The translations under genes were made by a program, and so were the position numbers. From Patescibacteria group bacterium (GTDB lineage: Bacteria; Patescibacteriota; Minisyncoccia; UBA6257; GWB1-50-10), in assembly GCA_024239035.1 (NCBI GenBank), contig JANBVK010000001.1:1-40261 (forward strand): a stretch of DNA of 40,261 nucleotides, read 5' to 3'. Shown here one piece after another: positions 7,399 to 39,676 of this stretch. The first letter of the stretch is position 1. Each line of letters begins with the position of its first letter. The notes beneath the pieces are model-generated. The model was not told the DNA's origin. It ran no database searches and saw only the letters and a program-made list of their open reading frames with translations.

Positions 7399-7569
7399 AT
7401 GGCAAAGGGGAAATTTACAGAACAATTAGTGCGGCTTAGGTGTACTGCCTGCAAGAAGGTTAATTACAATAAGCGCAAGAATAAAAAGACGGTGGAGCGG
7501 AAACTTGAATTAAAGAAGTTTTGTCGTTGGTGTAGGAAGCATAAAACTCATAAGGAGAGTAAGAAGTAA
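7399..7569 (+). CDS. rpmG: 50S ribosomal protein L33 (zinc-ribbon type); host 5' part plus phage-supplied 3' part
   Basis: Missing from the ORF track (56 aa): MAKGKFTEQLVRLRCTACKKVNYNKRKNKKTVERKLELKKFCRWCRKHKTHKESKK; CxxC...LELKKFCxxC.KH..HKE signature. Confidence 0.96.
   Translation: MAKGKFTEQLVRLRCTACKKVNYNKRKNKKTVERKLELKKFCRWCRKHKTHKESKK
7513..7535 (+). repeat. attL core inside rpmG
   Basis: AAGAAGTTTTGTCGTTGGTGTAG, 22/23 identical to 39620-39642. Confidence 0.9.
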
Positions 7570-7588
7570 GAAAAAATCTCCTTTAAAG

Positions 7589-7616
7589 AAATGCCCCGTG
7601 GAAACGGGGCATTTTT
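7589..7616 (+). terminator. Phage-supplied intrinsic terminator after the repaired rpmG
   Basis: AAATGCCCCG-TGGAAA-CGGGGCATTT followed by TT. Confidence 0.85.
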
Positions 7617-7685
7617 GTTGTCCGATCTCGTCAAAGGTCGCGCTGATGCCGAGCGATATCGGTAAGACTAGCAACTATTATAAAC

Positions 7686-7856
7686 GTGAAACGTATTAAT
7701 GGTGTAACCATTCTCGACGGCAGTGATATAAAAAACCACTGCGGCCGGCACCGACGAAAATGGAATTACTGCAAACACAAGAGACAATTTTGTAGTTGTA
7801 AAGAGTGCCAAAAAGATGCGGTGAGATTCATCGCACTCAATCAAGTAAATCAATGA
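7686..7856 (+). CDS. Small Cys/His-rich phage protein (56 aa)
   Basis: Not in the ORF track. GTG start, MKRINGVTILDGSDIKNHCGRHRRKWNYCKHKRQFCSCKECQKD...; its stop overlaps the next start (ATGA). Confidence 0.6.
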   Translation: MKRINGVTILDGSDIKNHCGRHRRKWNYCKHKRQFCSCKECQKDAVRFIALNQVNQ

Positions 7857-9064
7857 TCAATAATTCACAACAGAGTCGAGTACCCAGTAATTTCTTCACC
7901 GAAGCCGAGAACACCAAACCATACTTCAAAGCTGGGCTGCAAGGGTTAGCCGGCTCCGGCAAAACTTACACATCCGCTTTAATCGCCAAAGGCCTCCACG
8001 CACGGATCAAATCAGAAAAACCGGTTGTCATATTCGATACAGAGAAAGCCGCGAAATTCTTAAAGCCGATGTTCGCGGAGGCGAAGATTCCCGTCCTTGT
8101 AAGGGAATCAAAATCACTAACCGATCTCATGGAGGCGATGCGTATGATGCGAGAAGAGGGCTTATCCGATATTCTTATCATCGATTCTATCTCCCACGTC
8201 TGGGAAAACTTTCTTGGTGCATACAAGAAAAAAATCGGCCGTGCCAACTTCCAATTCCAGGACTGGGGCCTGATTAAGCCGGCCTGGAAAGAAAGTTTTT
8301 CGGATCCGTTCGTAGGTGATCCATACCACATCATTATGTGTGGCAGAGCGGGTTACGAATACGGCTATGAGATGAACGAGGACACTCATAAAAAGGAGCT
8401 CCGAAAAACCGGCATCAAGATGAAGGTGGAGGGCGAGACCGCCTACGAGCCGGATCTTCTCATTCAAATGGAGCGCTTTCAGGAAATGGAGGGTAATAGT
8501 CTGAAGCGCGTGATCCGCACCGCGACGGTTATAAAAGACCGATCGACGGTAACCGATGGCAAGGTGTTCGAGAACCCTACCTACGAACATTTCGCGCCGG
8601 CCGTCGAGGTGATGCTCTCTGATCCATTCGCTAAAGCCGGGAACTTGTTGCCTGAGGGCGACCCGGCCGCCATGATCCGCACCGAAGAAGAAAAGTGGGA
8701 GTACCGCCGAGAACTCAAAACTCTCCTCGAGGAAATTGAAGGCCTCCTAAATAGAGTCTTCCCAAGTTCAGTGGGTAAGGACCGGGCGAACAAACTAAGC
8801 TCTCTCGATATGGCTTTCGGCACCACGTCCGAAACGGCCATGAAAGAAATGAGGCCGGACGAATTGCGCGAAGGCTTCCGAAAACTAATGGACATCCTGG
8901 TCGAGGCAGGATCCGCCTATTGGTCGGAACGAGACAGTCGAAGGATTCTAAATATCGGCAAGGATCCCGCCGCCACACCGCCTAGTGAGCTGAAAGACGG
9001 AGAACCGCCCGAAAGCGTCTCAAAACCGCCGAAGAAAAAGGATAAGGCTCCTGAAGCCAAGTAG
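7853..9064 (+). CDS. Phage AAA ATPase (AAA_24 / Sak4-like recombination protein)
   Basis: Walker A GLAGSGKT, VIFDTE, Walker B ILIIDSISH, YEPD, VIKDR. ATG 7853 inferred from the ATGA overlap. Confidence 0.8.
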   Translation: MINNSQQSRVPSNFFTEAENTKPYFKAGLQGLAGSGKTYTSALIAKGLHARIKSEKPVVIFDTEKAAKFLKPMFAEAKIPVLVRESKSLTDLMEAMRMMREEGLSDILIIDSISHVWENFLGAYKKKIGRANFQFQDWGLIKPAWKESFSDPFVGDPYHIIMCGRAGYEYGYEMNEDTHKKELRKTGIKMKVEGETAYEPDLLIQMERFQEMEGNSLKRVIRTATVIKDRSTVTDGKVFENPTYEHFAPAVEVMLSDPFAKAGNLLPEGDPAAMIRTEEEKWEYRRELKTLLEEIEGLLNRVFPSSVGKDRANKLSSLDMAFGTTSETAMKEMRPDELREGFRKLMDILVEAGSAYWSERDSRRILNIGKDPAATPPSELKDGEPPESVSKPPKKKDKAPEAK

Positions 9065-9080
9065 AAATTGGCTCTCGACT

Positions 9081-9473
9081 TTGCCCTCACGCTCTCGCGA
9101 TGAGGGCAAAGATGGGGAGCTAAAAATAAACCCCCATATAGCCGGGACTGTGGATAAACAAGAAGATCAAAGAAGAATACCACCGCACGTTGAACGAGTT
9201 ATTAGTAATGTGTTTCAACTTCTCGTAAAACATCCGGTGTTGTTCGGAGTAGAAAAGCGGAAAAGAGCAATTTGGAGATACTGGCAGGAGTATGACGGCG
9301 TGAAAAACAGCATTGGCTATCCTAAATTTGCGAATCTCACTCACACAGAAACTATTGCGCGCGCCATAAGATATTGGAATGAAAACGAAATAAGACGTCA
9401 AAGGGTAATGAATGAAGCAGAAAAACATCAACAAGACCAATCCTTAGCACGCTTAAAAGAGTCTGTGAGTTAA
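9081..9473 (+). CDS. Hypothetical phage protein; true start possibly GTG 9150
   Basis: Co-oriented ORF ending 1 nt before the replication gene; TTG 9081 lies inside a strong hairpin. Confidence 0.65.
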   Translation: MPSRSRDEGKDGELKINPHIAGTVDKQEDQRRIPPHVERVISNVFQLLVKHPVLFGVEKRKRAIWRYWQEYDGVKNSIGYPKFANLTHTETIARAIRYWNENEIRRQRVMNEAEKHQQDQSLARLKESVS

Positions 9474-9474
9474 T

Positions 9475-10509
9475 ATGGAAAATAAAAAACACAAAAGTAT
9501 TCTTCCAAACACAACTCAGGTCCCGCATCTTATTATTCGGACATGGATGCCACGACTTAAAGATACGGAGTTGCGCATACTTCTTGTAATTACTGATCAA
9601 ACTCTCGGCTGGATTGAAGATCGGGCAACCGGCCGGCGCAAAGAACAGGATTGGATATCGCATTATCAACTCTGTAAGAAATCGGGAAGGGCAAGCAGAT
9701 CAGTTTCACGAGCAGCTAAAGTGCTTATTGAAAAACATAGGATAGTCGGGGCGTACGATGAGCAAGGAAACGCCCTGGATACGGCGGGAAAGCGCCAAAA
9801 ATGCGGGTATAGGATTTATTACCGCCTAGCCCTCCATTTGCCTCCTATGACCATTTTTGATACCCCTGCCAAAAGTGCTGGGGTAGCAGATAAGCACCTA
9901 CCCCTGCCAAAAGTGCGTTCGCCAAAAGTGCGAACTACAAAAGTAACCGTTATTACAAAAGGGGTTTTGTCTAAAAAAGACAAAACCTTGCGAACGGCAG
10001 AGCCGATCGCCTCTAAAAGTAAAAATTTAAAAGAAAACAAGAGATCACTGCACAGTCAATTCATAGAATTTTGGCACGAGACAACTCAGCGTGCGCGCGG
10101 TATAAAGCCGGTTATCACAGGCAAGGATGCCCGGAACCTAAAGAGAGTATTGGATATGGGTATTTTGAACCAGTACCGGCTGGAGCAGCTGGCCGCCTAC
10201 TTCCTGGCGCATCCGACGTTTAGGAAATTTAGTCCATCGATTGCGACGTTCCTTTCAGCTGGTATTTTGAACGGTCTAATGAATCGCATGGAGAATGATC
10301 CTAATTTTTGGAAGGAACTTGAGGTGTTTGCAATGCGGCACCTAAAACCGCCGAGCTTCGGAAAAACATTTACAGAAGAAAATCCAAGCGAAATGATCGA
10401 GCGCTTGGCACGATTAAAAGCAAAACTCTTTAAAGAGCCGTTTACTCCAGCTGAGCGCACGAAGTTTCAAGAGGAGGCCGCGGTGGAGGAAAGAGCAGCA
10501 AGAACATGA
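9475..10509 (+). CDS. Phage replication initiator (lambda O-like N-terminal winged helix)
   Basis: NTTQVP...L...ELRILLVI.DQT.GW...K..DWIS..QL...SG; internal iteron-like repeats at 9861-9961. Confidence 0.75.
   Translation: MENKKHKSILPNTTQVPHLIIRTWMPRLKDTELRILLVITDQTLGWIEDRATGRRKEQDWISHYQLCKKSGRASRSVSRAAKVLIEKHRIVGAYDEQGNALDTAGKRQKCGYRIYYRLALHLPPMTIFDTPAKSAGVADKHLPLPKVRSPKVRTTKVTVITKGVLSKKDKTLRTAEPIASKSKNLKENKRSLHSQFIEFWHETTQRARGIKPVITGKDARNLKRVLDMGILNQYRLEQLAAYFLAHPTFRKFSPSIATFLSAGILNGLMNRMENDPNFWKELEVFAMRHLKPPSFGKTFTEENPSEMIERLARLKAKLFKEPFTPAERTKFQEEAAVEERAART
9861..9961 (+). repeat. Iteron-like repeats, putative phage origin
   Basis: TACCCCTGCCAAAAGTGC at 9861 and 9899, GCCAAAAGTGCG at 9921, CAAAAG cores at 9938 and 9956. 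Confidence 0.7.
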
Positions 10510-10670
10510 ATGGCAGTAAAAGGTCGAACCATAAAAAAACAAGTAAACAGGGCCGGCAACGGTTCAGGATGATTACTGATACCCAATCAAATTAGTAATT
10601 AGAAATCTTCTTTGTCATTACATCGCCGCGTAAGCTCCAAAAATCCGAAAGAGGCCTGAAAGAATTTTAC

Positions 10671-10946
10671 ATGTATAAAGAAATCATAAAAAAATATCTG
10701 ATAATCGTTATAACCATTTTCCTGTTCGGTTTCGCGGCGGGGATGTTGGTTAGCATTCCTTTCCGGCCGGATCCCGAAATCATAGTTAAGGAAAAGCCCT
10801 GCACTCTGAACCAACAGATCCTAGACGTGATCAGGACAGAGGAGACACTGAAGTCGCAGCTGTGCATCAGGAACGGTCAGCTGCCTGACAGGAGTATTTA
10901 TAACGGGGAGTTCAAAGGTTGTGTTCCACCACCGGAAGGATTTTAA
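10671..10946 (+). CDS. Hypothetical membrane-anchored protein
   Basis: Single N-terminal hydrophobic helix. Confidence 0.7.
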   Translation: MYKEIIKKYLIIVITIFLFGFAAGMLVSIPFRPDPEIIVKEKPCTLNQQILDVIRTEETLKSQLCIRNGQLPDRSIYNGEFKGCVPPPEGF

Positions 10947-11007
10947 GTGGAGATAAAGTCAAAACATAACAAGTAATTAAAGTCGTAAATCAATAAAAAA
11001 TAAAACA

Positions 11008-12402
11008 ATGACTATAAAATTAATAAAAATTACAGAGTGCTGTGAGTCAAAAACGAACACTCGCGGCAAGGATGCGTTCCAAGGCCCGGCGTTCAACGAT
11101 CTTGTGGCGAGTATCAAAGAGAAAGGGGTAATAGTGCCGGTGATTGTCCGGGAAACAAGCTCAAGTAACAGATCAGTCGCTTACGAAGTTGTCGCTGGGA
11201 GTCGCCGGCTCCAAGCGGCAGCTATTGCGGACTTACAGCAAATCCCAGCAGACGTGCGGGAGCTGTCCGACGTCGAGGCCAGGGAGATACAAATCATAGA
11301 GAACTTACAGCGCGAAGACATCCACCCCGTTGCCGAGGGGGAGGAGTATCGCAAACTTATAGAAGTGTCGGGATATGAGGTGAAGGACGTAGCCGCGAAA
11401 GTGGGCAAGTCGGAGAGCTATGTTCGGCAGCGATTACTGCTTACCAATCTCACCAAAGCTGCTTCGAAGGAGTATCGGGCCGGGAAAATAGACTACGGCC
11501 GCGCGGTTTTGGTAGCGGGGCTTAGCCCCAACGACCAGGAAACGGTTATAAAAGAAATAAAGAGCGGGTGGAATGCACCGACTGCAGTGGCTCTTAAGGA
11601 GCTTATAGAAAGAGAGATATACAAACCTCTCGCAAGTCAGCCGTGGCTCCACGATAAGAAAGTGGCCGAAGCCGTCGGACCATGCAAGGAGTGCCCGCCA
11701 AACAGGAGCGATCTCTTTGGAGAAATAAAAGACGGCCAGTGCACAGACTTAGTTTGTTGGAAGCGCAAGATGGATCTTTATGTCGATTACCGCAAAGGGG
11801 GAATTAAGGATCTTATCCTCGTTAGAAAGGACTACGGATCGGCAAGCAAAGGCGTTCTCTCCCGCAGCAACTATGAGTCCTTGGGCTCGAAGAAGAAACA
11901 ACATTGCAGTTATGCTAGGCAAGCCATCGCGGTAGAGGGACCGGGAGCCGGAAGTATCTTTTGGATCTGTGCTGATGGCAGTTGTAAAAAGCATCACTAC
12001 TCGTTCACGTCTTATGAGCAGACGCCGGCTGAAAAGAAAAGACGGAAGAAGCAACTCCAGCGCGTGCAGGCAGAAAAAGACAAAGAGGATAAGAGAATCT
12101 TAATAGCGCTCAAAAAAGTGAGGTGGCCGATGTCAAAGAAGGTCCTGGACGCGATACTCGAGAAGCAACTGGGACGAGGTCCGCAAATCCTCCGGCCGGT
12201 CATGAACCGCCACAAGTTGAAGATAAAATTGGTAACGCGCAAGAACTGGGAAGGCAAGATGGTCAAGGAACGCGATGTTGGGGCGACACTCCGGGACGCT
12301 GCAAAGAATATGAAGCCGCGTGAGAGGCTGCAGCTGGTGATCGAGATCATCCTGGAGGACTCCTGGGAAGAGGCGAGGGAGAAAATAATCAAGATGCTAT
12401 GA
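11008..12402 (+). CDS. ParB/RepB/Spo0J-family protein with a Cys-rich central region
   Basis: LVASIKEKGVIVPVIVR, YEVVAGSRRLQAA, IIENLQREDI, HTH VAAKVGKSESYV; C..CP...C....C cluster. Confidence 0.88.
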   Translation: MTIKLIKITECCESKTNTRGKDAFQGPAFNDLVASIKEKGVIVPVIVRETSSSNRSVAYEVVAGSRRLQAAAIADLQQIPADVRELSDVEAREIQIIENLQREDIHPVAEGEEYRKLIEVSGYEVKDVAAKVGKSESYVRQRLLLTNLTKAASKEYRAGKIDYGRAVLVAGLSPNDQETVIKEIKSGWNAPTAVALKELIEREIYKPLASQPWLHDKKVAEAVGPCKECPPNRSDLFGEIKDGQCTDLVCWKRKMDLYVDYRKGGIKDLILVRKDYGSASKGVLSRSNYESLGSKKKQHCSYARQAIAVEGPGAGSIFWICADGSCKKHHYSFTSYEQTPAEKKRRKKQLQRVQAEKDKEDKRILIALKKVRWPMSKKVLDAILEKQLGRGPQILRPVMNRHKLKIKLVTRKNWEGKMVKERDVGATLRDAAKNMKPRERLQLVIEIILEDSWEEAREKIIKML

Positions 12403-12794
12403 GTATAGAAGAAACAATTAAAAAAGCGATAGAGGGTGGGTATGGAATGCTCGGATGGAAAAACTATCAGGAACTTATTGTTGGACAACACGATGACCCT
12501 CAAGCGAAAGATGGTTTTTGGAATGTTTATCTTCATTGGAAAGGTAACAATCAAAATATCCTTAGCAGAAAAATAATGGTTGAGAGAATTTTCCTCGACC
12601 CCAAATTCTGGCAATCACTCGGTAAGGCGTTGGGGTGGAAAAACCAATTAGGAAGTTGCCCATTGAACTGTGAATGTGAGGGTGGAATTGTTAATTGTGG
12701 GTGGAAAGGTGAATCGTGGCTCTACTATTGGCATCGCTTCACAGACCACCTCGCCGAAGAAAAACCAATAGAAGAATTTTTTAAGGAATTATGA
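12399..12794 (+). CDS. Hypothetical phage protein
   Basis: ATGA overlaps at both ends. Confidence 0.75.
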   Translation: MSIEETIKKAIEGGYGMLGWKNYQELIVGQHDDPQAKDGFWNVYLHWKGNNQNILSRKIMVERIFLDPKFWQSLGKALGWKNQLGSCPLNCECEGGIVNCGWKGESWLYYWHRFTDHLAEEKPIEEFFKEL

Positions 12795-14605
12795 GTAAAA
12801 TCAAACTTAAAATTTCAAAAGAGATCTCTCTGCCGCTTGAAATAGTTACCCAAGTTATTGCCATTCTTGCAAAGCGCCGTGCTGGCAAGAGCTACATGAT
12901 GCGCCGGCTAGTTGAGCAACTTTTCACGTCGGGACAGCAAGTCATTCTCGTGGATCCGAAAGGCGACCAGTGGGGCATACGTTCCTCGTCAGATGGCAAA
13001 AAGCCAGGTCTTCCTATTGTTATTCTCGGTGGCGAGCATGGTGATGCGCCGCTTGAAGTGAACGCTGGTGAAGTAGTGGCCAAACTCATCGTAGAAGAAC
13101 AGGTTAGTGTTCTGCTTGACTTATCGCCGTTTCGCAAACATGAGGTGGCGACGTTCATGACGGCGTTATTGGAGAATATTTACCGCCTCAAAGCGCGGGA
13201 AATCTATCGTACTCCTTGCATGATAGTGATAGACGAGGCAGACGCCATAGCACCCCAAAAACCTCAGAAAGGCGAGGAGCGCATGCTTGGCGCCGCAGAG
13301 GACATCGTACGCCGCGGAGGCCAACGAGGGATAGGATGTACGTTAGTAACCCAACGTTCAGCCGTGCTTAATAAAAATGTTCTTACGCAGGCGCAGATGC
13401 TTGTAGTGTTGCGAACCATAGCGCCACAAGATCTCGCTGCTATGAAAGCGTGGATAGATGTTCATGGCTCTCCAGAACAAGGTAAGACGCTAATGGATTC
13501 CCTACCTTCCTTACCTGTTGGGGATGCGTGGTTTTGGTCTCCTGGCTGGCCCACAGATGAGGGTATTTTCAAGCGCACACATGTGCTCCCCATTAATACG
13601 TTTGACTCCGCGGCTACCCCGAAGTCGGGCGAAAGGAAAGTTGTGCCTAAAAATCTCGCCGACGTTAATCTAAATGTTTTGAAAAAACAGATGGCCGCGA
13701 CGATAGAGAAAGCGAAGAACGAAAATCCGAAGGTGTTGCATAGACGCATTGCCGAGCTTGAACGGGAAATGAAAACTCATAAGTGCCCGGCCGTAAAACA
13801 GCAACCAGTAAAGATCGAACGTATCGAGATCCCCACGATTGGAAAGCGAGCTCTTGAGAAGTTTGAGAAAAGCGAAAAGGAAATCAGAGCGATGCTCAAA
13901 AAGACTAGAGAGCTTTCTATTATGGCCGATAAATCTGCAACATCGATTCTGTCAGCGATGGATATTCTCTCCAAAGAAGTTCATAAAGTTGCGCAAAAAG
14001 CGTCGGCAATGGCAATGCCGCCTGCCGGCAGGCAGGCAGGCCCTGAACGGGCGCCCGTTCAGGTAGAAAAAAAGCAGCACATCGAGGTTCCCCCGCGGGG
14101 GCCCGGGTTCGAGTCCCGGCCGGCGCTCACAGATGAAGATGAATCAGGACCGCTCAATCAAGGTGAGAGGAAAGTTTTAATTGCTATCGCCCAGCATGTA
14201 GATGGAGTTAAAACCGAACATATTGCGGTGCTAACTAGCTATAAAAAGACCTCTCGCCGTGTTTATCTCCAAAAGCTTTCACAGCGTGGATATATTACGA
14301 AGTCAGACAATAATTTCTTTGCAACCGATATCGGTATAGCAGCACTTGGCTCTGATTTTAAGTCGCTTCCGATTGGATCTGAACTGCGTGAACATTTGAA
14401 ACAGACATTACCTGAAGGAGAGGCAAAGATATTTAACGTGCTCATTGAGCGTTATCCGGATGGAGTAAATCGTGAAGAACTTATGGATCTGACCGGATAT
14501 AAAAAAACATCCATGAGAGTTTATTTCCAAAGACTCAGCGCGCGAAAAGTAATTGAAGTTATTGAGGGCGAGGCAAAGGTCGCAGATAAATTGTTTGAAC
14601 AATAA
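12791..14605 (+). CDS. HerA/FtsK-superfamily ATPase (DUF87/DUF853-like) with two C-terminal winged-helix-like repeats
   Basis: ILAKRRAGKS (Walker A), VILVDPKGD, MIVIDEA (Walker B), RRGGQRG, VTQR. Two repeats GE.K...LT.YKKTS.RVY.Q.LS at the C-terminus. Confidence 0.85.
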   Translation: MSKIKLKISKEISLPLEIVTQVIAILAKRRAGKSYMMRRLVEQLFTSGQQVILVDPKGDQWGIRSSSDGKKPGLPIVILGGEHGDAPLEVNAGEVVAKLIVEEQVSVLLDLSPFRKHEVATFMTALLENIYRLKAREIYRTPCMIVIDEADAIAPQKPQKGEERMLGAAEDIVRRGGQRGIGCTLVTQRSAVLNKNVLTQAQMLVVLRTIAPQDLAAMKAWIDVHGSPEQGKTLMDSLPSLPVGDAWFWSPGWPTDEGIFKRTHVLPINTFDSAATPKSGERKVVPKNLADVNLNVLKKQMAATIEKAKNENPKVLHRRIAELEREMKTHKCPAVKQQPVKIERIEIPTIGKRALEKFEKSEKEIRAMLKKTRELSIMADKSATSILSAMDILSKEVHKVAQKASAMAMPPAGRQAGPERAPVQVEKKQHIEVPPRGPGFESRPALTDEDESGPLNQGERKVLIAIAQHVDGVKTEHIAVLTSYKKTSRRVYLQKLSQRGYITKSDNNFFATDIGIAALGSDFKSLPIGSELREHLKQTLPEGEAKIFNVLIERYPDGVNREELMDLTGYKKTSMRVYFQRLSARKVIEVIEGEAKVADKLFEQ

Positions 14606-14615
14606 AAATAAAATC

Positions 14616-14891
14616 ATGGCAAAAGTAAGAGCATATATAAGAGTCGGAAAATCAAAAAGAATTGACTATAAAGTCAGTGCTTCTCCGAAGCCGAATTACG
14701 CCCCACTTGAATCGTTGAGAGGTATGAGGAAAGAATTTCAGCCAACAGTGGCATTCGCAGTGGATTTTGATATTCCGGACGAACTTTTTGAACAGGCAGA
14801 AAAGTTAATCGGGGAGGTTAAGGTTTCTGCGGATCAGGCGACGATAGCGGCAGATATTTCTAAAGACACAAAGATTGAACCAAAAACATGA
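14616..14891 (+). CDS. Hypothetical phage protein
   Basis: ATG 14616 after an A-rich spacer; co-oriented. Confidence 0.7.
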   Translation: MAKVRAYIRVGKSKRIDYKVSASPKPNYAPLESLRGMRKEFQPTVAFAVDFDIPDELFEQAEKLIGEVKVSADQATIAADISKDTKIEPKT

Positions 14892-15141
14892 AGGAATTAG
14901 AAGAATCATGAGAACAGCCATTACAAGAGCAGTGGAGGAAATTAGAACTCAATATAATTTGAGCGATGAGGTTATTGCTGATGAGTTTTCAAGGATGGTT
15001 AAAATCAATCTCCCGGCAATAAAAAAGGAAATTGCAATTAAATTTTATACTCCAAAAGCCGATATTAAAAAACAAATTCGCCAGGCATTAAAAGAAGAAA
15101 AATTAACGCAAAAATCTTTTAAACAAAATCGTCTAATTTAA
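14875..15141 (+). CDS. Hypothetical phage protein; start may be ATG 14908
   Basis: Co-oriented and tightly packed. Confidence 0.6.
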   Translation: MNQKHEGIRRIMRTAITRAVEEIRTQYNLSDEVIADEFSRMVKINLPAIKKEIAIKFYTPKADIKKQIRQALKEEKLTQKSFKQNRLI

Positions 15142-15143
15142 AC

Positions 15144-15389: not shown

Positions 15390-15399
15390 AATCACAAAC

Positions 15400-15615: not shown

Positions 15616-15623
15616 GAAAAGCC

Positions 15624-15980: not shown

Positions 15981-16041
15981 ACATATCTGGCGCAACTCTT
16001 ATCTATCACTTTTAAGAATTGCGCCAGGTAAGAAGCATCAG

Positions 16042-16428: not shown

Positions 16429-16433
16429 TTCCA

Positions 16434-16862: not shown

Positions 16863-16864
16863 CC

Positions 16865-30473: not shown

Positions 30474-30502
30474 GAGAGAGCTAAGTTCTTTGAATCACGT
30501 AA

Positions 30503-30850: not shown

Positions 30851-30902
30851 AAAAATAAAAACAAATATAAAGGTCGACTCTTAATTATTAACTATCATAT
30901 TT

Positions 30903-31336: not shown

Positions 31337-31337
31337 A

Positions 31338-32810: not shown

Positions 32811-32813
32811 ATT

Positions 32814-34238
32814 ATGGCACTTGTTCTCAAAATAAATACCATCGACAGGAATGACCATATTGCCTGGGATACGCTTACCAAGAGTGAACGGCTGACAAAA
32901 GAGCCCGATATCCTGCAGTTTAACATTAGAGAAACGCCCTCAAAGACGATCCCTGCGCTCGGAGATTCGGTAGAGCTCCTAGAGGACGCAGTAAAGATAT
33001 TTGGCGGCATCATTACCGAAAGGTTGGAGAACGTCATTGGCGGCCGGCTCATCGGGTACAAGATTAGATGCAAGGATCACCACCACACCCTCGACAAGGA
33101 GCTCGTAGTAAAGAGCTACGAAAACCAGACAGCCCGCGCGATCATTCTTGATATCATTACAACCTTCACCGACGGCTCATTTACAACAGCGAACGTCCCG
33201 ACAAGCACGCCGACTATAGGCTCAATAAAATTCAACTACGAGCCGGTAAGTAAAGCGATCCAAAAGATTGCTGATCTTATTAACTGGGATTGGTATGTTG
33301 ACTACGATAAGGACATTAATTTCTTTGATGATCAGACAAATACCGCGCCCTTTGATGTTGAGGATTCAAATGACAAGATAGAGTGGCCAACGTTGAAGTT
33401 AGAGCGCAATATTCACGAACTCAAGAATTCAATCATTGTACGCGGCGGGAAATATAAAAGCACAATTGCCGAAGCTGATGCCGTTGATAAATACGATGCA
33501 GACGGTCTGCAGCGGACATTCCCGCTTGTGTACCGATACAGCAACATCAGCGTTAAAGTCGCGGGAGCTGCGAAGACGGTCGGTACGGACTTCCTTAGTG
33601 ATCCTCTGGCATTTGATTGCCTTTACAATTTCCAGGAAAAACTGATTAAGTTCCGTGAGAACAACAAACCTGCGGTAGGGGATGATGTAGTAGTTTTTGG
33701 CGATTCCCACATACCACTGATCGCAAAAGTGCGGGACCAGATAAGCGTTTCAACTTACGGCGAGTATCAGCACATAATTGTTAAAAAGAACATTATTTCA
33801 ATCACTGAAGCGCAGCAGCTGGCAAAGTCAGAGCTGCGGCGGTGGTCAGACGGCTTATATGAGGTGCGGTTCAGGACAACCGAAACGGGTTTGAAAACCG
33901 GGCAGCAGATACGCATTAACAGCACGATTCGCGGCATTGACAAGAAATTTAAAATAAACGGGATTACGGGGAAAGCCCGGGGGAGTGATCATATGGAATA
34001 CCAAGCGTTTCTCTTGGCATCGGGCGATGTAACCTTTACGGACATGATGGTGGGGCTGCTTGGAAAGGACAGGGAGAACATTGATGTTGCCGATGATGAA
34101 GTGTTGCAGAGGCTTGAGATATTTCCCGAGACAATCAATATTGGCGAATTAGTGACCACAATTAAAAAATCACCTCCCTACACGTGGGGAGTGGGTGGAT
34201 CAAATGACTTCAAATGGAACTTTGCGACATGGGCATAA
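32814..34238 (+). CDS. Tail tip/hub protein
   Basis: Position after the tape measure; WYVD.DK...FF, N.I.V.GG, GL..GQ.I.I. Confidence 0.7.
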   Translation: MALVLKINTIDRNDHIAWDTLTKSERLTKEPDILQFNIRETPSKTIPALGDSVELLEDAVKIFGGIITERLENVIGGRLIGYKIRCKDHHHTLDKELVVKSYENQTARAIILDIITTFTDGSFTTANVPTSTPTIGSIKFNYEPVSKAIQKIADLINWDWYVDYDKDINFFDDQTNTAPFDVEDSNDKIEWPTLKLERNIHELKNSIIVRGGKYKSTIAEADAVDKYDADGLQRTFPLVYRYSNISVKVAGAAKTVGTDFLSDPLAFDCLYNFQEKLIKFRENNKPAVGDDVVVFGDSHIPLIAKVRDQISVSTYGEYQHIIVKKNIISITEAQQLAKSELRRWSDGLYEVRFRTTETGLKTGQQIRINSTIRGIDKKFKINGITGKARGSDHMEYQAFLLASGDVTFTDMMVGLLGKDRENIDVADDEVLQRLEIFPETINIGELVTTIKKSPPYTWGVGGSNDFKWNFATWA

Positions 34239-34732
34239 AGAAACACAATCTAATAAAACTACCTGATAGCTTCGGAGTCCGTGGCAGAATTATTATTAGA
34301 ACTTATAGGGTGGGGACAAAGAAACTTCTTCGCGAATTGATAGTTCCTAACCTTGTGGTTTCAAGCTCTGATCATGGGCGTAACTTGATAGCCCAGCGGC
34401 TAGCCGGCACGAACACCTATACCCTCAATATCACCCACGGTGAGATCGGAACGGGCACAGCAACGCCCTTAAACAACGATACTGCTCTCCAGACCCCGAC
34501 CTTAAGAAAAGCAAAGACACTTGAATCAGTGAGTAATAATATCGTTACTATTCAATTCTTTATGTCAGACGCAGAACTTGCAGATGGCACATACAACGAA
34601 TTCGGGACGTTCGTGGACGGATCGGCAACAATCGGGACAGGACAACTGTTTAACAGAGCATTATTTGCGACTCCCTACATAAAAGCAAGCGGCGAGGATA
34701 CTACCGTAGAGGTTGAATTCACGATCACGTAG
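34214..34732 (+). CDS. Tail/baseplate structural protein; start may be ATG 34229
   Basis: NLVV..GR, IGTGT.TP...DTAL, EFG.F, LFNR. Confidence 0.7.
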   Translation: MELCDMGIKKHNLIKLPDSFGVRGRIIIRTYRVGTKKLLRELIVPNLVVSSSDHGRNLIAQRLAGTNTYTLNITHGEIGTGTATPLNNDTALQTPTLRKAKTLESVSNNIVTIQFFMSDAELADGTYNEFGTFVDGSATIGTGQLFNRALFATPYIKASGEDTTVEVEFTIT

Positions 34733-34735
34733 ATG

Positions 34736-34860
34736 TGGTATAATTAGGACATATAATTGAAAATCAATACTCGCGATAGGCGAGTTTGAGTCTAAGTGGA
34801 ATAACCATAGGACTCGCGGTTTACCTGATCTCCAGGATAAGCTGCGGGTCCCTTTTATTT
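34736..34860 (+). promoter_or_regulatory. Late promoter and attenuator leader, copy B, upstream of tail fibre and lysis genes
   Basis: TGgTATAAT; hairpin; core GTCTAAGTGGAATAACCATAGGAC (34790-34813) overlapping terminator GGACTCGCGGTTTA/TAAGCTGCGGGTCC plus CTTTTATTT. Confidence 0.8.
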
Positions 34861-34865
34861 AAACC

Positions 34866-36824
34866 ATGGCACGCAGCGCAGAAGTCAATATAGGAGATAA
34901 CGCATTAGCAGCTCAATACAATAATCTCCGCAAGGATGCGATTGCGGCGGCGCATTTGCTTGCCCACGAGCAGGCAACTCCTGATCTCACTCTTAAAGTT
35001 GAATCGGGAGTTTATTATATTGGTTCAACGCGCGTTGCGTTTGCGGGCGGGAACAGTCCCTCTTTTGTTGCACCGACTACAAACCCCCGCATTGACCTTC
35101 TTGTGATTGACAGCGCAGGAGTGCTCTCGATTGTCCAGGGCACGGAAGCGCCGAGCCCGAGCATACCGACCTACCCGCAGGATAAGGTAACTCTTTGTGA
35201 AGTGTTTAACCGCGTTGGCGAAACAAGCATTAAAGACATAGATGATACATCGAACGGTTACATTCAGCGGGACGTCCGCCCATTTTTAGGGAAATCCTTT
35301 GATCCAGCAAGCGTGGATCAGGACATTATTCCTGCAACCGACGATACCCACGATCTAGGAAGCGCAGCAAAACAATGGGCTGAGGTCCGAACCGTCAAAA
35401 TTTTCGTGGATGGCGCGGAAATGAAAGGGACACTTGAATCGTTTACTGCAGGCGAAAATCTTACCATCGGTGATCCCGCTGGCGTTGCATCTGGAAATAA
35501 GGTAAAGAAGGCATTTAATTACGGCGCAGCACTAGGGTCAGAGACAGTATTTAAAGCAACTGCAACCACAAACGTTGCGGCTGCACAAATTGCCGATGAT
35601 AAGTTCGTTCTTGCTTACTGGGACGGCACAAATGTAAGAGCAAGAGTGGCAACGGTATCGGGCACCACGCCTAGTTTCGGAACGGAAGTGACTATCAGCG
35701 GCGTAGCGTCGCAACCTGTCATAGATGTTTGTAAATTAGACACCGATAAATTTGTAGTTGTTTACTCACAAGGAAACCGAACGCGACTCGGTCGCCCCTG
35801 TTCGGTATCAGGAACAACTATTACACTCGGGACAATCAAAGATTTCGGCGACTTTCCAAGCGCGGACACATCAATTATAAAATGCGCCCAGCTTGATGTT
35901 GACAAATTTGTTGTGATGGCGGGAGCGCTGGACACAGCAGTAGTAATCTGGGCAAATACTGTAAGCGCATTAGTAATCACAAAAGGTAGTGACACTGCTC
36001 TTGGAATGGGAGCGCCGCCGACAGACAGCAAACACAATGCAAACGCTTCGCTTGCACAGGTTGACACCGATAAATTTGTGGCTGCATATCGAAAGGTGTC
36101 CGACAACGATGGCTATGTAAAAATAGGGACCGTAAGCGGAACAATCATCACGCTCGGAGGAGAGACGTCTTTCAACGCAGCCGATACGAGCGAGATTGAC
36201 GCTGTATGCCCGACCACCACCAATCTCATTGTCTCTTACAAAGACGAAGGTAATTCAAACCAGGGGACTCTGGTTGCAGCGACAATATCAGGCACTACGC
36301 CAACTTTTGGGAGCGAGGTGGTTTTTGAAACAGGCATTACTAATTTTACTTCAATAGCGAAAGTAGGCAGTAAGACAGTCGTCATTGCCTACCAAGACGC
36401 GGGAGACTCGAATCATGGAAAGGTGGTATCGGCAAAGATAAACGGGAATACGGTGAGCGGCGTAGGGACGGGCTTGGCGATTACTACGTTTAACGCGGCA
36501 ACCACGACCTACATTGCGATAGCAGACACAAATTCAACAGGATCGTTTATTGTGGGCTATCGCGATGAAGGCAATTCAAACCAGGGGACGGCCGTTGTTG
36601 GTGAAGGTGACACCGTTCAAAACTTTACTGGAATTGTACAAGCAACGGTAACTTCTGGTAATCCTGTCGACGTGAAACTGATCGGGACAGACAGCAACCA
36701 GAGCGGATTGACTACGGGACAAAAGTATTTCGCTGTTGACGGAGCATTAAGCACCAGTAATGAGAATGGCGATGATTCTAAGGTTGGCTGGGCAAAGACG
36801 GCAACCTCGATCGTAATAACATAA
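34866..36824 (+). CDS. Tail fibre / receptor-binding protein with about 50-aa repeats (beta-propeller-like)
   Basis: N-terminal NPRIDL.V; repeats D.DKFVV.Y and VSGT.IT.G.E. Confidence 0.75.
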   Translation: MARSAEVNIGDNALAAQYNNLRKDAIAAAHLLAHEQATPDLTLKVESGVYYIGSTRVAFAGGNSPSFVAPTTNPRIDLLVIDSAGVLSIVQGTEAPSPSIPTYPQDKVTLCEVFNRVGETSIKDIDDTSNGYIQRDVRPFLGKSFDPASVDQDIIPATDDTHDLGSAAKQWAEVRTVKIFVDGAEMKGTLESFTAGENLTIGDPAGVASGNKVKKAFNYGAALGSETVFKATATTNVAAAQIADDKFVLAYWDGTNVRARVATVSGTTPSFGTEVTISGVASQPVIDVCKLDTDKFVVVYSQGNRTRLGRPCSVSGTTITLGTIKDFGDFPSADTSIIKCAQLDVDKFVVMAGALDTAVVIWANTVSALVITKGSDTALGMGAPPTDSKHNANASLAQVDTDKFVAAYRKVSDNDGYVKIGTVSGTIITLGGETSFNAADTSEIDAVCPTTTNLIVSYKDEGNSNQGTLVAATISGTTPTFGSEVVFETGITNFTSIAKVGSKTVVIAYQDAGDSNHGKVVSAKINGNTVSGVGTGLAITTFNAATTTYIAIADTNSTGSFIVGYRDEGNSNQGTAVVGEGDTVQNFTGIVQATVTSGNPVDVKLIGTDSNQSGLTTGQKYFAVDGALSTSNENGDDSKVGWAKTATSIVIT

Positions 36825-36834
36825 TCAAATAAAC

Positions 36835-37068
36835 ATGGATAACCAAAATCTGCACAACGAAATAATGCGTGCCATCGGACATCTTGAGGGGACAGTTAAA
36901 GAAGGATTCAAAAATACAGAGAACCATTTTAAATCAATAAACGGAAAGGTTGAAAGACATGACAAGGAAATTAATGCTCTAAAAACAAAAGCCACTATCC
37001 TTTGGGGCGGGGCAACTTTGACGGCAATTGCAGTCTGGGAGTTCATTAAAAGTAAAATTTACAGATAA
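36835..37068 (+). CDS. Holin-like small protein (coiled coil plus C-terminal TM)
   Basis: INGKV..H...I followed by a hydrophobic helix; precedes the endolysin. Confidence 0.6.
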   Translation: MDNQNLHNEIMRAIGHLEGTVKEGFKNTENHFKSINGKVERHDKEINALKTKATILWGGATLTAIAVWEFIKSKIYR

Positions 37069-37070
37069 AA

Positions 37071-37685
37071 ATGAGAACGCTTCAACTATATTATTCTTTA
37101 CACCCCTGGACGGTTGCCCAAAAATTCGGCCTAAACGGCGAATTCTATCGCAAGAATGGAATAAACATCAAAGGCCATAACGGCATCGATGCGGTCCGGG
37201 GCGGCGGCCACGAAATTCACGCCGCAAATGTCCGGGCCGCCCACGACGGAGTAGTCACTTACGTCGGTGTGGACAACAAAGAAGGATACGGCGTCGTGAT
37301 AAGGACCAAAAAACAGTTTCTCGATGTGAACGGTCAGCCGCATTTCTGGAAAACGATCTACTGGCATCTCCTACCGAACATTCCGGTCAAAGTCGGACAA
37401 GAAGTGAAAATCGGCGACATACTCGGCGAAGCCGACAATACCGGTTTCAGCTTTGGCAGTCATCTCCATTTCGGCTTGAAGCCGATTTACCAGGGCGAAA
37501 ACGACTGGACGTGGTTCAATCTCGATCAAAGCAATGGTTATTTTGGAGCGGTGGATCCCGAGCCGTACTTTACTGGATTGACTGCCTATGATCTCACGAC
37601 AAAGTTCCGCGACATCGCAAAGATTCTCAAAGAGATATTTAACTTGATAATGAGCTTCAAAAAGATAGTTTCTAAAAGGTCGTAA
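37071..37685 (+). CDS. M23-family peptidase, putative endolysin
   Basis: HNGID (HxxxD), YWHL, V..GQ.V..G..LG..DNTG.S.GSHLHF (HxH). Confidence 0.9.
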   Translation: MRTLQLYYSLHPWTVAQKFGLNGEFYRKNGINIKGHNGIDAVRGGGHEIHAANVRAAHDGVVTYVGVDNKEGYGVVIRTKKQFLDVNGQPHFWKTIYWHLLPNIPVKVGQEVKIGDILGEADNTGFSFGSHLHFGLKPIYQGENDWTWFNLDQSNGYFGAVDPEPYFTGLTAYDLTTKFRDIAKILKEIFNLIMSFKKIVSKRS

Positions 37686-37698
37686 TAAAAAATTCACC

Positions 37699-37977
37699 AT
37701 GGAAATAGGAAACATTCAAGAACTCTGGTCTGTAATCGGAGCCTATGCGTTAACTGGCGTGATCGTAACGACACTGATTCAGGTTACGAAAGAATGGATT
37801 AGCTCCCGGCGCGGTAAAGTATTTTGGGCAATTATCATATCGCTTGCTGCCGGCGTCGGCATTTACTTCCTGAATCTCCTGCCCGGCTCGTGGCTCGTGA
37901 TGCTCGCTGGCATTTATGGATCGGCCAATACGTTCTATTTACTGTTTTTCAAATCAAAGGAAGACAAGGGGACTTAG
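37699..37977 (+). CDS. Putative holin
   Basis: 92 aa with 2-3 TM helices and a charged C-terminus; follows the endolysin. Confidence 0.7.
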   Translation: MEIGNIQELWSVIGAYALTGVIVTTLIQVTKEWISSRRGKVFWAIIISLAAGVGIYFLNLLPGSWLVMLAGIYGSANTFYLLFFKSKEDKGT

Positions 37978-37980
37978 TGC

Positions 37981-38009
37981 TTGACACGCAAAGTACCGCG
38001 CTCTATACT
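37981..38009 (+). promoter_or_regulatory. Sigma70 promoter for the integrase
   Basis: TTGACA-17 bp-TATACT. Confidence 0.85.
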
Positions 38010-38034
38010 CCTTACCACAATTAAAAAACCTATT

Positions 38035-38197
38035 GTCCCGGAAGGGATCACCCGCAGCGGCGGGAGATATGACCGATGGGGTTCAAAATTGCCGAGAGAG
38101 GCAATATAATGATAACGCGATGGCGAAAGCTGTCGTAGTGCCTTGCAAGGCGCGCACGAACCCACCGTTGAGTCATATCGCGGTGGGTTTCGTGTTT
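38035..38197 (+). promoter_or_regulatory. Highly structured integrase 5' leader with two mutually exclusive folds
   Basis: 38066-38084 can pair with 38158-38179; alternatively 38155-38167 pairs with 38181-38194. Several small internal hairpins. Confidence 0.6.
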
Positions 38198-39160
38198 ATG
38201 AAATTCAGTGATGCAATAGAAAAATTTATTAACAGATCTGATTTAGAGAGAGCAGAAGGAACTGTAAAAGCGTATGAACAAGATCTCAAGAGATTCTGCG
38301 TCTTCACGCACAACCCTATCATCACAGAGATAACAGAAGAGAATGTGGTGGCGTACTTCCGGTTGCTCATCGAGTTGAAATACAAAAAGAATGCGTTTAT
38401 TCCCATACAACAATCCTTAATAAACTTCTTTAGATATTGGAGGAGAAAGGGACTTTACGTTCTGGATCACGAATTGATCCCCCGGACCAAAAAAGAATTC
38501 AGGATGCCGGATGTCGCCACAGAGGAAGATTACAGGAAGATGTTGGCGGCCATTCCTCAAGACACCAACCAGGCATTCCACATCAGGAACCGCGCCATGG
38601 TCATGTTCCTTGAAGCGACCGGCTGTCGCAACGGTGAGATGTGCTCTCTCAATATTGGTGATTCTAACTCTAGTCAAATCAAAAAAAATTACCTCGATCT
38701 AAGAAATCAAAAAGCATTGATCGAGACAGAAAAGAATAGAGGCAGTAGGCCCATTAGAGAGATATATTGGAAGGACAGCAAAGAAACTCACGAGGCGTTA
38801 TTAAAATGGATCGCAAGACGTTCTGAAATGAAAAAACATATAGTTTTTAAGGACCCTGACGCTCTCTTCGTAGGTTGTATGGGCTGGCAAGTAGGGAAAC
38901 GGCTGATGAACAGTGCAGTATGTATTGCGCTGCGCAAAATTTCAAGGAGTGCCGGGCTTACTTACAATTTTCATCCTCACATGCTCCGCCATAAATTCGG
39001 GCACGATCTTAATCGTGAAGGAGCAAATGCCTTTACAATTGCCGGGCTATTAGGACATGTTTTAGTAGAGAGTTCAAAAATTTATACGGAGATGGATAAT
39101 AAAGAGAGGCAAGAGGCGTATGTGAAATATAAGGGGGACCGGCACAAGAAAGACCAGTAG
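38198..39160 (+). CDS. int: Tyrosine recombinase (integrase)
   Basis: RNRAM..FL.ATGCR.GE (R), KN (K), HPHMLRH (HxxR), LLGH, IYT (Y); adjacent to attR. ATG 38198 preferred. Confidence 0.95.
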   Translation: MKFSDAIEKFINRSDLERAEGTVKAYEQDLKRFCVFTHNPIITEITEENVVAYFRLLIELKYKKNAFIPIQQSLINFFRYWRRKGLYVLDHELIPRTKKEFRMPDVATEEDYRKMLAAIPQDTNQAFHIRNRAMVMFLEATGCRNGEMCSLNIGDSNSSQIKKNYLDLRNQKALIETEKNRGSRPIREIYWKDSKETHEALLKWIARRSEMKKHIVFKDPDALFVGCMGWQVGKRLMNSAVCIALRKISRSAGLTYNFHPHMLRHKFGHDLNREGANAFTIAGLLGHVLVESSKIYTEMDNKERQEAYVKYKGDRHKKDQ

Positions 39161-39179
39161 CTGTCCACAACCTACTCAC

Positions 39180-39207
39180 TTGACTCGTTAGGAGTAGGTA
39201 TTAGAAT
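39180..39207 (+). promoter_or_regulatory. Promoter P1 of the small HTH-like gene, with a repeated operator-like motif in the spacer
   Basis: TTGACT-16-TAGAAT; spacer contains CGTTAGGAGT. Confidence 0.6.
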
Positions 39208-39215
39208 TATGGCAT

Positions 39216-39467
39216 ATGAAACCAAAAGTAAACCGAAATGAGGAAATTGTTGCGCTCCACGATCATGACCCTATTAAGTATTCTTTTGGCAATCTTGCGA
39301 AAAAATACAGGAATTCAAAGACAAAAAAGCCACTTTCTAAACAAACAATTTACGAGATTTATATTCGAGAAAAAGCAAGGCGTGGAAATAAGAGTGCGCT
39401 TAATTCATCACTCGTGAAAAACAAGTATCCGCAGTTTTTGAAGCGTAAGGAGTTATCCACAGTTTGA
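39216..39467 (+). CDS. Small basic HTH-like protein (candidate repressor or excisionase)
   Basis: RNEEIV.L...YSFGNLAKKY...LSKQTIYEIY.RE; lies between int and attR. Confidence 0.7.
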   Translation: MKPKVNRNEEIVALHDHDPIKYSFGNLAKKYRNSKTKKPLSKQTIYEIYIREKARRGNKSALNSSLVKNKYPQFLKRKELSTV

Positions 39468-39470
39468 TAT

Positions 39471-39498
39471 TTGATATCGTAAGGAGTATAAGTATACT
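39471..39498 (+). promoter_or_regulatory. Promoter P2 facing attR and tRNA-Trp
   Basis: TTGATA-16-TATACT; spacer contains CGTAAGGAGT; DnaA box TTATCCACA at 39453-39461. Confidence 0.6.
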
Positions 39499-39619
39499 AA
39501 AAATAAGAAAGCACATTAGAAATCAAATAAAATAAATTGCTCGCCTGCCGAGTTCGTGACTGTGGCCACAGTCATGGGTTCAGCAGACGAGCAACATGGG
39601 GCATTTCTGCTCCTGCACT

Positions 39620-39676
39620 AAGAAGTTTTGCCGTTGGTGTAGAAAACACCAAACTCACAAAGAGAGCAAGAAGTAG
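39620..39676 (+). pseudogene. rpmG: attR: displaced original 3' end of rpmG
   Basis: Encodes KKFCRWCRKHQTHKESKK-stop; 48/57 nt identical to 7513-7569. Confidence 0.92.

Follow-up and report, generated by a model that had tools for sequence, protein, structure and literature searches.

A tailed prophage inside the ribosomal protein gene rpmG of a Patescibacteria bacterium probably restores the gene end that it displaces

Introduction

A classical mode of integration targets the 3′ part of a gene, the mobile element bringing its own replacement for the displaced part. Integrases of phages and islands target the 3′ ends of tRNA and tmRNA genes, where the phage attachment site (attP) carries the gene end, so that the gene is rebuilt; phage 21 and e14 integrate into the 3′ part of an essential gene of E. 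coli, icd, and restore it. The 3′ end of rpmG, the gene of ribosomal protein L33, is a target of tyrosine integrases of streptococcal integrative and conjugative elements (ICEs) (PMC4701971) and of streptococcal integrative and mobilizable elements (IMEs) (PMC5357655); the integrase families concerned are named Tyr_6 and Tyr_10 (PMC5357655). In the passages cited, this site is used by two unrelated integrase families with opposite architectures and holds tandem accretions and decayed elements (PMC4701971, PMC5357655). Here we describe a prophage of about 32.1 kb in the rpmG gene of a Patescibacteria group bacterium. The stretch analysed, hereafter the window, is the 40,261-nt beginning (the first 40 kb) of the 621-kb contig JANBVK010000001.1 in assembly GCA_024239035.1, which comprises 794,594 bp in 12 contigs and is 99.68% complete.

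An earlier reading made from the letters of the window alone (the sequence-only reading) had called a ribosomal protein target unusual and intact prophages scarce in the candidate phyla radiation (CPR). Both judgements were overstated: the rpmG end is the documented streptococcal target cited above, and the passages seen of three reports give CPR prophages in numbers, namely 411 temperate viral operational taxonomic units linked to metagenome-assembled genomes from groundwater (PMC12911398), 10 prophages in 125 genomes (PMC12455944), and two Absconditicoccaceae prophages that seem intact and have predicted att sites (bioRxiv 10.1101/2024.03.08.584096). Our literature search on rpmG with prophage and attB, the bacterial attachment site, returned only ICE and IME papers and reviews, and no printed case of a prophage in rpmG was found in it.

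Results

A duplicated rpmG end bounds a complete-looking tailed prophage

The last 18 codons and the stop codon of rpmG (7513-7569) were found again at 39620-39676, at an offset of 32,107 bp. The two copies were identical at 48 of 57 nt, and their similarity started sharply at 7513/39620 and ended at the stop codon. Seven of the nine differences were third-position transitions, all of them synonymous; one was a first-position A/C difference, which gives K49 in the left copy and Q49 in the right copy, and one was TAA (left) versus TAG (right). The sequence-only reading had described this repeat correctly in every detail (57 nt, nine differences, K/Q49, TAA/TAG), and the coordinates also bore out its statement that the left copy completes rpmG and is followed by a terminator, the right copy lying before tRNA-Trp. 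When the whole assembly was searched with rpmG DNA, only these two sites were matched (full gene, E 1.3e-85; fragment, E 1.6e-12). L33 stayed full-length, with 56 aa, an end-to-end Pfam match and residues 1-56 aligned with the proteins of relatives, and the open frame at the right fragment was 38 aa only. We infer that rpmG is now a hybrid gene, made of host codons 1-38 and then the left att repeat. The terminator hairpin behind it has a 13-bp stem and a T-run (dG -21.3 kcal/mol, z -4.33), and none of 200 shuffles was as stable.

Between the two copies, nearly all open reading frames (ORFs) from 7805 to 39467 were on the plus strand, and Pfam and PHROGs annotation recovered a complete tailed-phage set of terminase, portal, prohead protease, HK97-fold capsid, tail tube and tape measure (Table 1). 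Head-tail adaptors and further genes of replication and DNA metabolism (ParB, HerA-like ATPase, RusA) were annotated as well. Because no sheath protein was found in the prophage with Pfam or PHROGs, we call the phage siphovirus-like. Its tyrosine integrase aligned to the XerA structure 5hxy over the whole catalytic domain and retained the R, H-x-x-R and H...Y boxes, and the gene ends 460 nt before the right attachment site (attR). Direct repeats with identical 11-nt blocks thus bound the element, with the integrase adjacent to attR, and the earlier claim of a prophage inside rpmG held: a complete-looking set of phage modules and a tyrosine integrase lie between the copies. Cultured phages were remote, with portal identities of at most 30% and Geobacillus phage GBK2 as the top match.

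The rpmG-tRNA-Trp order is ancestral and is split by the element

The host was compared with relatives of the same order. Its genome, small at nearly full completeness, falls among 400 sampled species of that order with genomes of 0.3-1.5 Mb. Ribosomal protein L30 (PF00327) had no match in the host genome, and the same search was positive in 13 of 14 control genomes; the absence of L30 is commonly described as a CPR-wide trait. A CPR/Patescibacteria-like host with a small genome is therefore well supported, in agreement with the sequence-only reading, which had called a CPR host probable.

For the comparison of rpmG, 40 other genomes of the order, all of other genera, yielded 29 L33 loci. tRNA-Trp was downstream of rpmG in 26 of these loci, on the same strand in 25 and, as read from coordinates, within roughly 70 nt in about 12; the remaining three had no tRNA-Trp within the 1.5-kb flank. 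Given this synteny and the 12-nt gap in the window, the right copy with tRNA-Trp is the ancestral arrangement. The native order is now split, as the sequence-only reading had stated when it described tRNA-Trp as uncoupled from rpmG. Past tRNA-Trp, the right flank was not syntenic with the relatives. A nucleotide-level scan found no second rpmG 3′ copy within 1 kb in 27 of the 29 loci (background local score at most 26). Everything from 7569 to 39620, terminator included, is the element wherever in the repeat the crossover lies.

Strand exchange most likely occurred at the left edge of the repeat

The position of the crossover decides which copy is element-borne, and the phage origin of the replacing part of rpmG would follow from it. 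Identical blocks of the repeat were located at offsets 0-10, 12-22, 31-37 and 48-55. Its first 23 nt were identical at 22 positions, whereas the remaining part was identical at 26 of 34.

Further evidence came from related phages. Portals 47-58% identical to that of the element were found in 13 IMG/VR loci, one of which, IMGVR_UViG_3300025323_000018 (G408; 35,358 bp, rated 100% complete), was colinear with the element from a Sak4-like gene at its left end to an integrase and an orf83 homologue at its right end. Fifteen of the 42 element ORFs matched the parts of G408 compared, all but its middle 11.6 kb, with identities of 55% for the portal, 66% for the capsid, 40% for the integrase and 37% for the orf83 homologue. 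Some 88 nt inward from either contig end, G408 has an imperfect repeat of 23 nt, which corresponds in position to the first 23 nt of the 57-nt repeat. From this 23-nt stretch to the terminator of the P′ arm, the left arm of the phage, the distance is about 55 nt in G408 and 52 nt in the element, whereas a right-edge crossover would leave about 20 nt. The likeness of the two terminators reached a local score of 31 against a shuffle mean of 13.7 (standard deviation 2.1), a value reached by none of 2000 shuffles. On the integrase side, G408 has the same promoter-like blocks P1 and P2 with the motif CGTWRGGAGT, despite neighbouring proteins that are only 37-40% identical. Thus G408 resembles the element in gene order, in its P1/P2 blocks with this motif and in the P′ terminator, but its 23-nt end repeat is of a different sequence and its right flank opens directly into a NUDIX-like ORF. 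G408 appears to use a target other than rpmG.

Other elements have apparently left their marks at the same gene end. In a protein-level survey of the 400 genomes of the order, a second L33 match at E≤0.01 turned up in 13 genomes other than that of the host. In G009, of the same family as the host, a second C-terminal fragment begins about 30 nt past a full rpmG and abuts tRNA-Trp, with a 19-nt identical core at the left edge; the copy that completes the gene is the atypical one. In G210, of another family, the full rpmG is followed by a hairpin and, at about 95 nt, by a second fragment, with a 22-nt identical core again at the left edge. The nucleotide-level scan of the 29 loci refound G009 and added G006, also of the same family, with two degenerate extra rpmG 3′ copies; G006 and G009 scored 44-46, while no other of the 29 loci exceeded 26, and their short spacers, compared by eye, were alike at about 15 of 18 nt. 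The loci concerned are L004 (G006:C19), L024 (G009:C2) and L071/L078 (G210:C29). Repeat boundaries were at codons ~43-48 in G006, G009 and G210, and at codons 39-42 in the window. The most plausible reading of these duplicates is that other elements, since decayed, recombined at a different crossover point and left scars, and scars in three relatives make the rpmG end a recurrent target. Relatives that lack the phage and keep both rpmG segments, which the sequence-only reading had held would speak against integration, do therefore exist in form (G006, G009 and G210), but 27 of the 29 loci are single, the boundaries differ and none of the duplicates is orthologous to that of the window, so that in spirit the objection does not stand.

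The other second matches of the survey were set aside or are of little weight. G070, G217, G232 and G284 have two full or near-full L33 copies on different contigs; the second matches of G001, G024, G031, G089 and G398 are weak and look like noise; that of G289 lies directly upstream of rpmG. G302 is ambiguous: its full rpmG and its fragment, at two contig ends, would suit a second split lysogen, but they also differ upstream of the repeat, and two strains in the bin are an equally likely source. In G039, only a contig start inside rpmG was seen, which is ambiguous.

The 22/23 identity, the arm architecture shared with G408 and the left-edge cores of the scars together favour a left-edge crossover. 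The strands were most likely exchanged at codons 39-46, inside the initial ~23 nt of the 57-nt repeat. The left attachment site (attL) would then consist of host codons 1-38, the core, and the phage-borne remainder with the terminator, and attR of the P arm of the phage, the core and the native remainder.

The two copies are constrained at the protein level

Seven of the eight sense-codon differences between the copies were synonymous. For the codons of the repeat, the expected synonymous share is 0.147 of all single changes and 0.33 of transitions, and with p set to 0.30 or 0.40 the binomial probability of at least 7 of 8 is 0.0013 or 0.0085, respectively; such a pattern is improbable without selection on the protein. 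This result indicated that the repeat copies show protein-level constraint. The synonymous pattern is the same whether the constraint acted in lysogens or during the divergence of two host genes before capture, and it cannot separate the two. Of the earlier proposal that attP carries an L33 C terminus under selection, the constraint therefore stood, while its seat may be the phage or an earlier host and the content of attP would follow from the crossover position.

At 46 of 54 nt, the copies resembled each other more than either resembled the rpmG of a relative, where identity did not exceed 40 of 54 nt in 29 genes. Furthermore, positions 49-50 were unusual in both (K-T and Q-T), and 27 of the 29 relatives have T at 49. 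Because the copies are mutually closest and share the rare residue pair with T50, the phage-borne copy came from, or was kept in step with, a host near the present one.

The right arm of the prophage probably drives the only tRNA-Trp gene

Among 46 tRNA genes called by aragorn in the whole 99.7%-complete genome, tRNA-Trp(CCA) was the sole tRNA-Trp. With a native gap of 12 nt to rpmG, it hardly has a promoter of its own, and the prophage therefore took away its upstream operon. In the interval from the integrase to tRNA-Trp, nothing resembling a terminator was found. Transcription of tRNA-Trp would now most likely start from the right end of the prophage, either at P2, a putative promoter judged by its sequence, or by read-through of int-orf83. 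The product of orf83 was all-helical in its AlphaFold2 model (mean predicted local distance difference test score 74.7); a Foldseek search gave no PDB match at E≤0.001, and Pfam gave sub-threshold hits only. Small, basic and next to the integrase, it is a candidate regulator or directionality factor. It is doubtful, though conceivable, that the prophage controls transcription of the sole tRNA-Trp through an operator-bearing P2 and so ties tryptophan decoding and host growth to the state of the prophage, the scars marking a long-used site. If this were true, the host would depend on its lysogen, and rpmG/tRNA-Trp would be a repeated landing site for several integrase specificities in the CPR order.

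The motif GGGGCATTT was tried as an arm-type site and rejected: it occurs three times, but two of the occurrences are the terminator arms, and three matches were reached in 2 of 100 shuffles.

The left junction is bridged by a second assembly

Among the public runs, X1, a marine sediment metagenome, alone contained the stretch (0.98 of sampled words) and is probably its source sample; runs X2 and X3 contained next to none of it, which says nothing on habitat or absence. The X1 data are contigs (Logan), not reads. A Logan contig of 13,198 nt matched 7231-20000 with 0 differences and thus spans attL. Misassembly, which the sequence-only reading had proposed to check at the junctions, is hence opposed at attL only, and this bridging is the work of a second assembler on the same data, not independent support. 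The depth of the attL-spanning contig was 20.7, compared with 26.4, 19.7 and 19.0 for contigs of the host flanks. The comparison of coverage inside and outside, likewise suggested earlier, therefore gave about equal values, from contigs, which cannot show rare excision.

Weighing of alternative explanations

The repeat can also be read the other way round. With strand exchange at the right edge, close to the stop codon, the whole left copy would be native, and the P arm would carry, as the right copy, a piece of the rpmG of an earlier host, for example after imprecise excision; the phage would then not repair the gene. The identical 8-nt block at offsets 48-55 fits such a crossover, the block at 31-37 could in principle hold the crossover as well, and the mostly synonymous differences suit divergence of the genes of two hosts equally. 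We nevertheless regard it as improbable, because the longest identical run lies at the left edge, G408 has its 23-nt repeat and its terminator spacing as a left-edge crossover requires, and the scars of G009 and G210 have their cores at the left edge, with an atypical completing copy in G009. Still harder to uphold is a target-site or tandem duplication that diverged later, with no phage-borne gene end involved. Phage-free duplicate rpmG ends do occur in G006, G009 and G210, but their boundaries differ and 27 of 29 loci lack them; an untranslated copy should drift at all codon positions, whereas the differences here are synonymous in seven of eight cases, and a divergence of 16% implies an age at which a 32-kb prophage should decay, of which no sign was seen. 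An assembly chimera or duplication artefact joining phage to host at a short shared sequence is hardly credible either, even though the window was assembled from a metagenome and is contained in the probable source sample only: the second assembler crossed attL without a difference, the element is embedded in a 621-kb contig and flanked by host genes on either side, and copies that differ at nine positions are not a collapsed repeat.

An integrated prophage that has become cryptic and fixed, no longer inducible, is a possibility of another order, unlikely on balance but well above the three just named. The depth inside the element, about that of the flanks, the lack of alternative junction contigs among those listed, the unrecognised repressor and excisionase, and the lack of a related portal in the 400 other genomes of the order speak for it. 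On the other side, the recognisable genes are all open and compactly ordered, the catalytic boxes of the integrase are kept, in size and gene order the element is like IMG/VR relatives rated complete, and rare excision would not be visible in contigs.

Several further observations weigh against integration into rpmG with repair of the gene as we describe it. Six integrase homologues (35-42% identity) were found in the 400 genomes, none with an L33 fragment or a tRNA within 1.5 kb, so that the suggested search for this integrase beside a split rpmG gave none in six. A closer integrase relative was found neither in viral nor in metagenome contigs, and genome contigs gave one match, 24% identical, in Roseburia. 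G408 contains no L33 fragment, and rpmG targeting is thus not shown in a second member of the lineage. No attP or attB form was seen in the X1 contigs, and no joint or loose end at 7513-7570 among those listed. A repressor or excisionase was not recognised in the prophage by Pfam or PHROGs, nor, for orf83, by structure search. The sigma-70-like promoter calls are consensus matches only, five being found where 1.9 were expected. A portal match at E≤1e-20 was likewise found in none of the 400 other genomes of the order, and a portal search of the scar genomes, G302 and G039 gave none; as no related portal was found and the integrase homologues are not beside L33 or a tRNA, rpmG targeting is so far unique to the window within this phage lineage. 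Taking all these points together, we consider it very probable that the element is a prophage integrated in rpmG by a left-edge crossover, with the gene restored.

Features of the window and related phages

The coordinates of rpmG, of the prophage and of its arms are collected in Table 1.

Table 1. Features of rpmG, the prophage and its attachment sites in the window
Feature	Position	Strand	Evidence or remark
rpmG (ribosomal protein L33, 56 aa)	7399..7569	+	Pfam PF00471 Ribosomal_L33, E 4.9e-16; full-length alignment to L33 of 29 relatives
attL repeat (K49, TAA)	7513..7569	+	Left copy; comparison with G408 places it probably on the element's side of the crossover
Probable core/crossover region	7513..7535	+	Two identical 11-nt blocks with one mismatch between; 22/23 nt
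Prophage body	7570..39619	+	Pfam and PHROGs annotation; element including one repeat copy, 32,107 bp
Intrinsic terminator hairpin, P′ arm	7587..7616	+	In the element, 18 nt past the rpmG stop; conserved at the left end of G408
Sak4-like/AAA_24 ATPase	7805..9064	+	First left-end gene; phrog_1366 E 6.9e-46, phrog_124; 58% identical to the first gene of G408
Replication initiator O-like protein	9475..10509	+	phrog_678 E 2.1e-07
ParB-N-fused DNA methyltransferase	17720..19003	+	phrog_498 E 6e-118, PF01555
Terminase large subunit (TerL)	19803..21260	+	phrog_38 E 3e-53
Portal fused to Mu-F-like domain	22001..24205	+	PF04860 E 5.5e-61, PF04233; 47-58% identical to 13 IMG/VR loci
Prohead protease	24238..25398	+	phrog_80; Pfam and PHROGs
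HK97-type major capsid protein	25401..26594	+	PF05065 E 1.6e-26
Tail module	29470..34238	+	PF18906 E 2.4e-16, PF10145 E 6.1e-33, phrog_991, phrog_1887
Tail tube	29470..30447	+	Part of the tail module
ORF, 115 aa, hydrophobic N-terminal segment	30503..30850	-	Between tail tube and tape measure; the only sizeable minus-strand prophage ORF
Chaperone-like ORF	30903..31226	+	Part of the tail module
Tape measure	31302..32810	+	Part of the tail module
Distal tail protein	32814..34238	+	Part of the tail module
M23 peptidase, lysin candidate	37071..37685	+	PF01551 E 7.2e-14
Small hydrophobic ORF, holin candidate	37699..37977	+	phrog_7767/3578 listed for the lysin and holin pair; putative holin
Tyrosine integrase, 375 aa	38033..39160	+	PF00589 E 5e-25, phrog_1 E 2.6e-29
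Promoter-like site P1, TTGACT-N16-TAGAAT	39180..39207	+	Upstream of orf83; CGTWRGGAGT in spacer; block-wise conserved in G408
orf83, small basic helical protein	39216..39467	+	Adjoins the integrase; 37% identical to the ORF at the same place in G408
Promoter-like site P2, TTGATA-N16-TATACT	39471..39498	+	Faces out to attR/tRNA-Trp; CGTWRGGAGT in spacer; block conserved in G408
Imperfect palindrome, 29-nt arms, P arm	39537..39594	+	Fold of 39500-39690, z -4.66
attR repeat (Q49, TAG)	39620..39676	+	Displaced native rpmG end, now a gene fragment; precedes tRNA-Trp as in relatives
tRNA-Trp(CCA)	39689..39760	+	12 nt past the right copy; Rfam; aragorn

The minus-strand ORF between tail tube and tape measure had no family match in Pfam or PHROGs and may be a candidate moron or lysogenic-conversion gene. 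An Atlas search with the 652-aa tail protein gave viral clusters only, with scores of at most 0.85, and the Rfam scan gave four tRNAs only. Searches outside the genomes of the order were made with several parts of the element. TerL had no match in viral contigs, and an exact 28-nt pattern of the P arm and core had 0 matches in metagenome contigs. The 16-nt operator/promoter motif of P1 had 24 matches in viral contigs, of which only G408 encodes homologues of int and orf83. L33 had no match in five IMG/VR relatives.

In G408 the NUDIX-like ORF starts at the repeat, and the record therefore looks like a provirus inserted directly before a host gene, with its P2 positioned to transcribe it. A decayed L33 end in G408 was considered and dropped, since 658 of 2000 shuffles scored as high as the comparison of the rpmG-like P′ part of the element with the left end of G408. 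Another relative, G409 (IMGVR_UViG_3300027819_000004; 36,067 bp), has direct terminal repeats, a portal 51% identical to that of the element and no integrase match, and the phage lineage may therefore include non-integrating members.

Neighbouring host genes

Upstream of rpmG, the stretch 4301-7018 looks like a horizontally acquired insertion. It is 2.7 kb long, has a G+C content of 0.52-0.53 (0.32-0.44 in the genome contigs) and lies between tRNA-Tyr and tRNA-Thr(tgt), which in several relatives are 15-900 nt apart. It contains a bifunctional purH (AICARFT/IMPCHase; 5295-6893) and an uncharacterized 162-aa ORF (4618-5106). The purH gene is flanked by a 54-nt direct repeat with 76% identity (5161-5214 and 6957-7010), the second copy lying immediately upstream of tRNA-Thr, and the X1 Logan contigs break at both tRNA-Tyr and tRNA-Thr. 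Depth in X1 was 26.4 for 1-4329 and 19.0-20.7 for 4341-20000, which covers the purH island, rpmG and the prophage; this step could be due to k-mers from related strains in conserved ribosomal genes or to a subpopulation without the downstream part. The EF-Ts ORF at 3419-3880 encodes 153 aa and covers positions 1-76 of the 204-position Pfam EF_TS model, and is either a short form or a truncated gene call.

Discussion

The repeat, the gene content, the integrase, the native synteny, the conserved arm architecture and the bridged attL are all observed, and they agree with the following course of events. A temperate siphovirus-like phage of ~32.1 kb would integrate through its tyrosine integrase into the 3′ part of rpmG in a small-genome bacterium of marine sediment, with a crossover in the first ~23 nt of the repeat, so that codons 1-38 are of the host, and the rest, the stop codon and the terminator are of the phage (P′ arm) and presumably come from attP. 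L33 would thereby be made full-length with one conservative change, Q49K, and transcription of rpmG would halt before the phage genes. The native end of rpmG would be left at attR as a dead fragment 12 nt upstream of tRNA-Trp, and tRNA-Trp, having lost the rpmG promoter, may be transcribed from P2, if this site acts as a promoter, or by read-through of int-orf83. The exact crossover, the content of attP, the promoter function of P2 and the inducibility of the prophage are the parts of this course that we infer.

At this locus, the att site of a prophage from an uncultured CPR-like bacterium is resolved to the base pair. The papers cited on prophages of Patescibacteria count them by prediction tools; of the passages cited, a single one mentions predicted att sites, and in them neither a target gene nor a junction sequence is given. 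The locus also extends the range of elements that target rpmG from streptococcal conjugative elements to a tailed phage in a very distant host, which suggests that short, highly conserved ribosomal protein genes are convergently chosen landing sites. Furthermore, the integrase and its att pair are a candidate tool for site-specific integration in a group without genetic tools, and a sole tRNA-Trp behind a putative phage promoter offers a case in which the rewiring of an essential host gene by a prophage can be tested.

Compared with known systems, the element shares with integrations at tRNA and tmRNA 3′ ends an attP that would rebuild its target and an integrase beside att. Its target, however, is protein-coding and lies 12 nt upstream of a tRNA gene, which is left intact but loses its upstream operon. 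Phage 21 and e14 are closer in that their target is also an essential protein-coding gene whose replacement codons have diverged mostly at synonymous sites; they differ in target gene, host and integrase lineage, and here the displaced end carries the sole tRNA-Trp. The closest likeness in target is to the streptococcal ICEs and IMEs, which, as far as the cited passages describe them, use the same gene, the same end, a tyrosine integrase and direct repeats within the target gene. Those, however, are conjugative or mobilizable elements of Firmicutes, whereas the element described here is a tailed prophage in a CPR-like host, and the two are compared by description, not by integrase sequence. 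Just as the streptococcal rpmG site is, by the same passages, used by several unrelated integrase families, the scars in relatives of the present host suggest at least two crossover points at its rpmG, at codons 39-42 and ~43-48.

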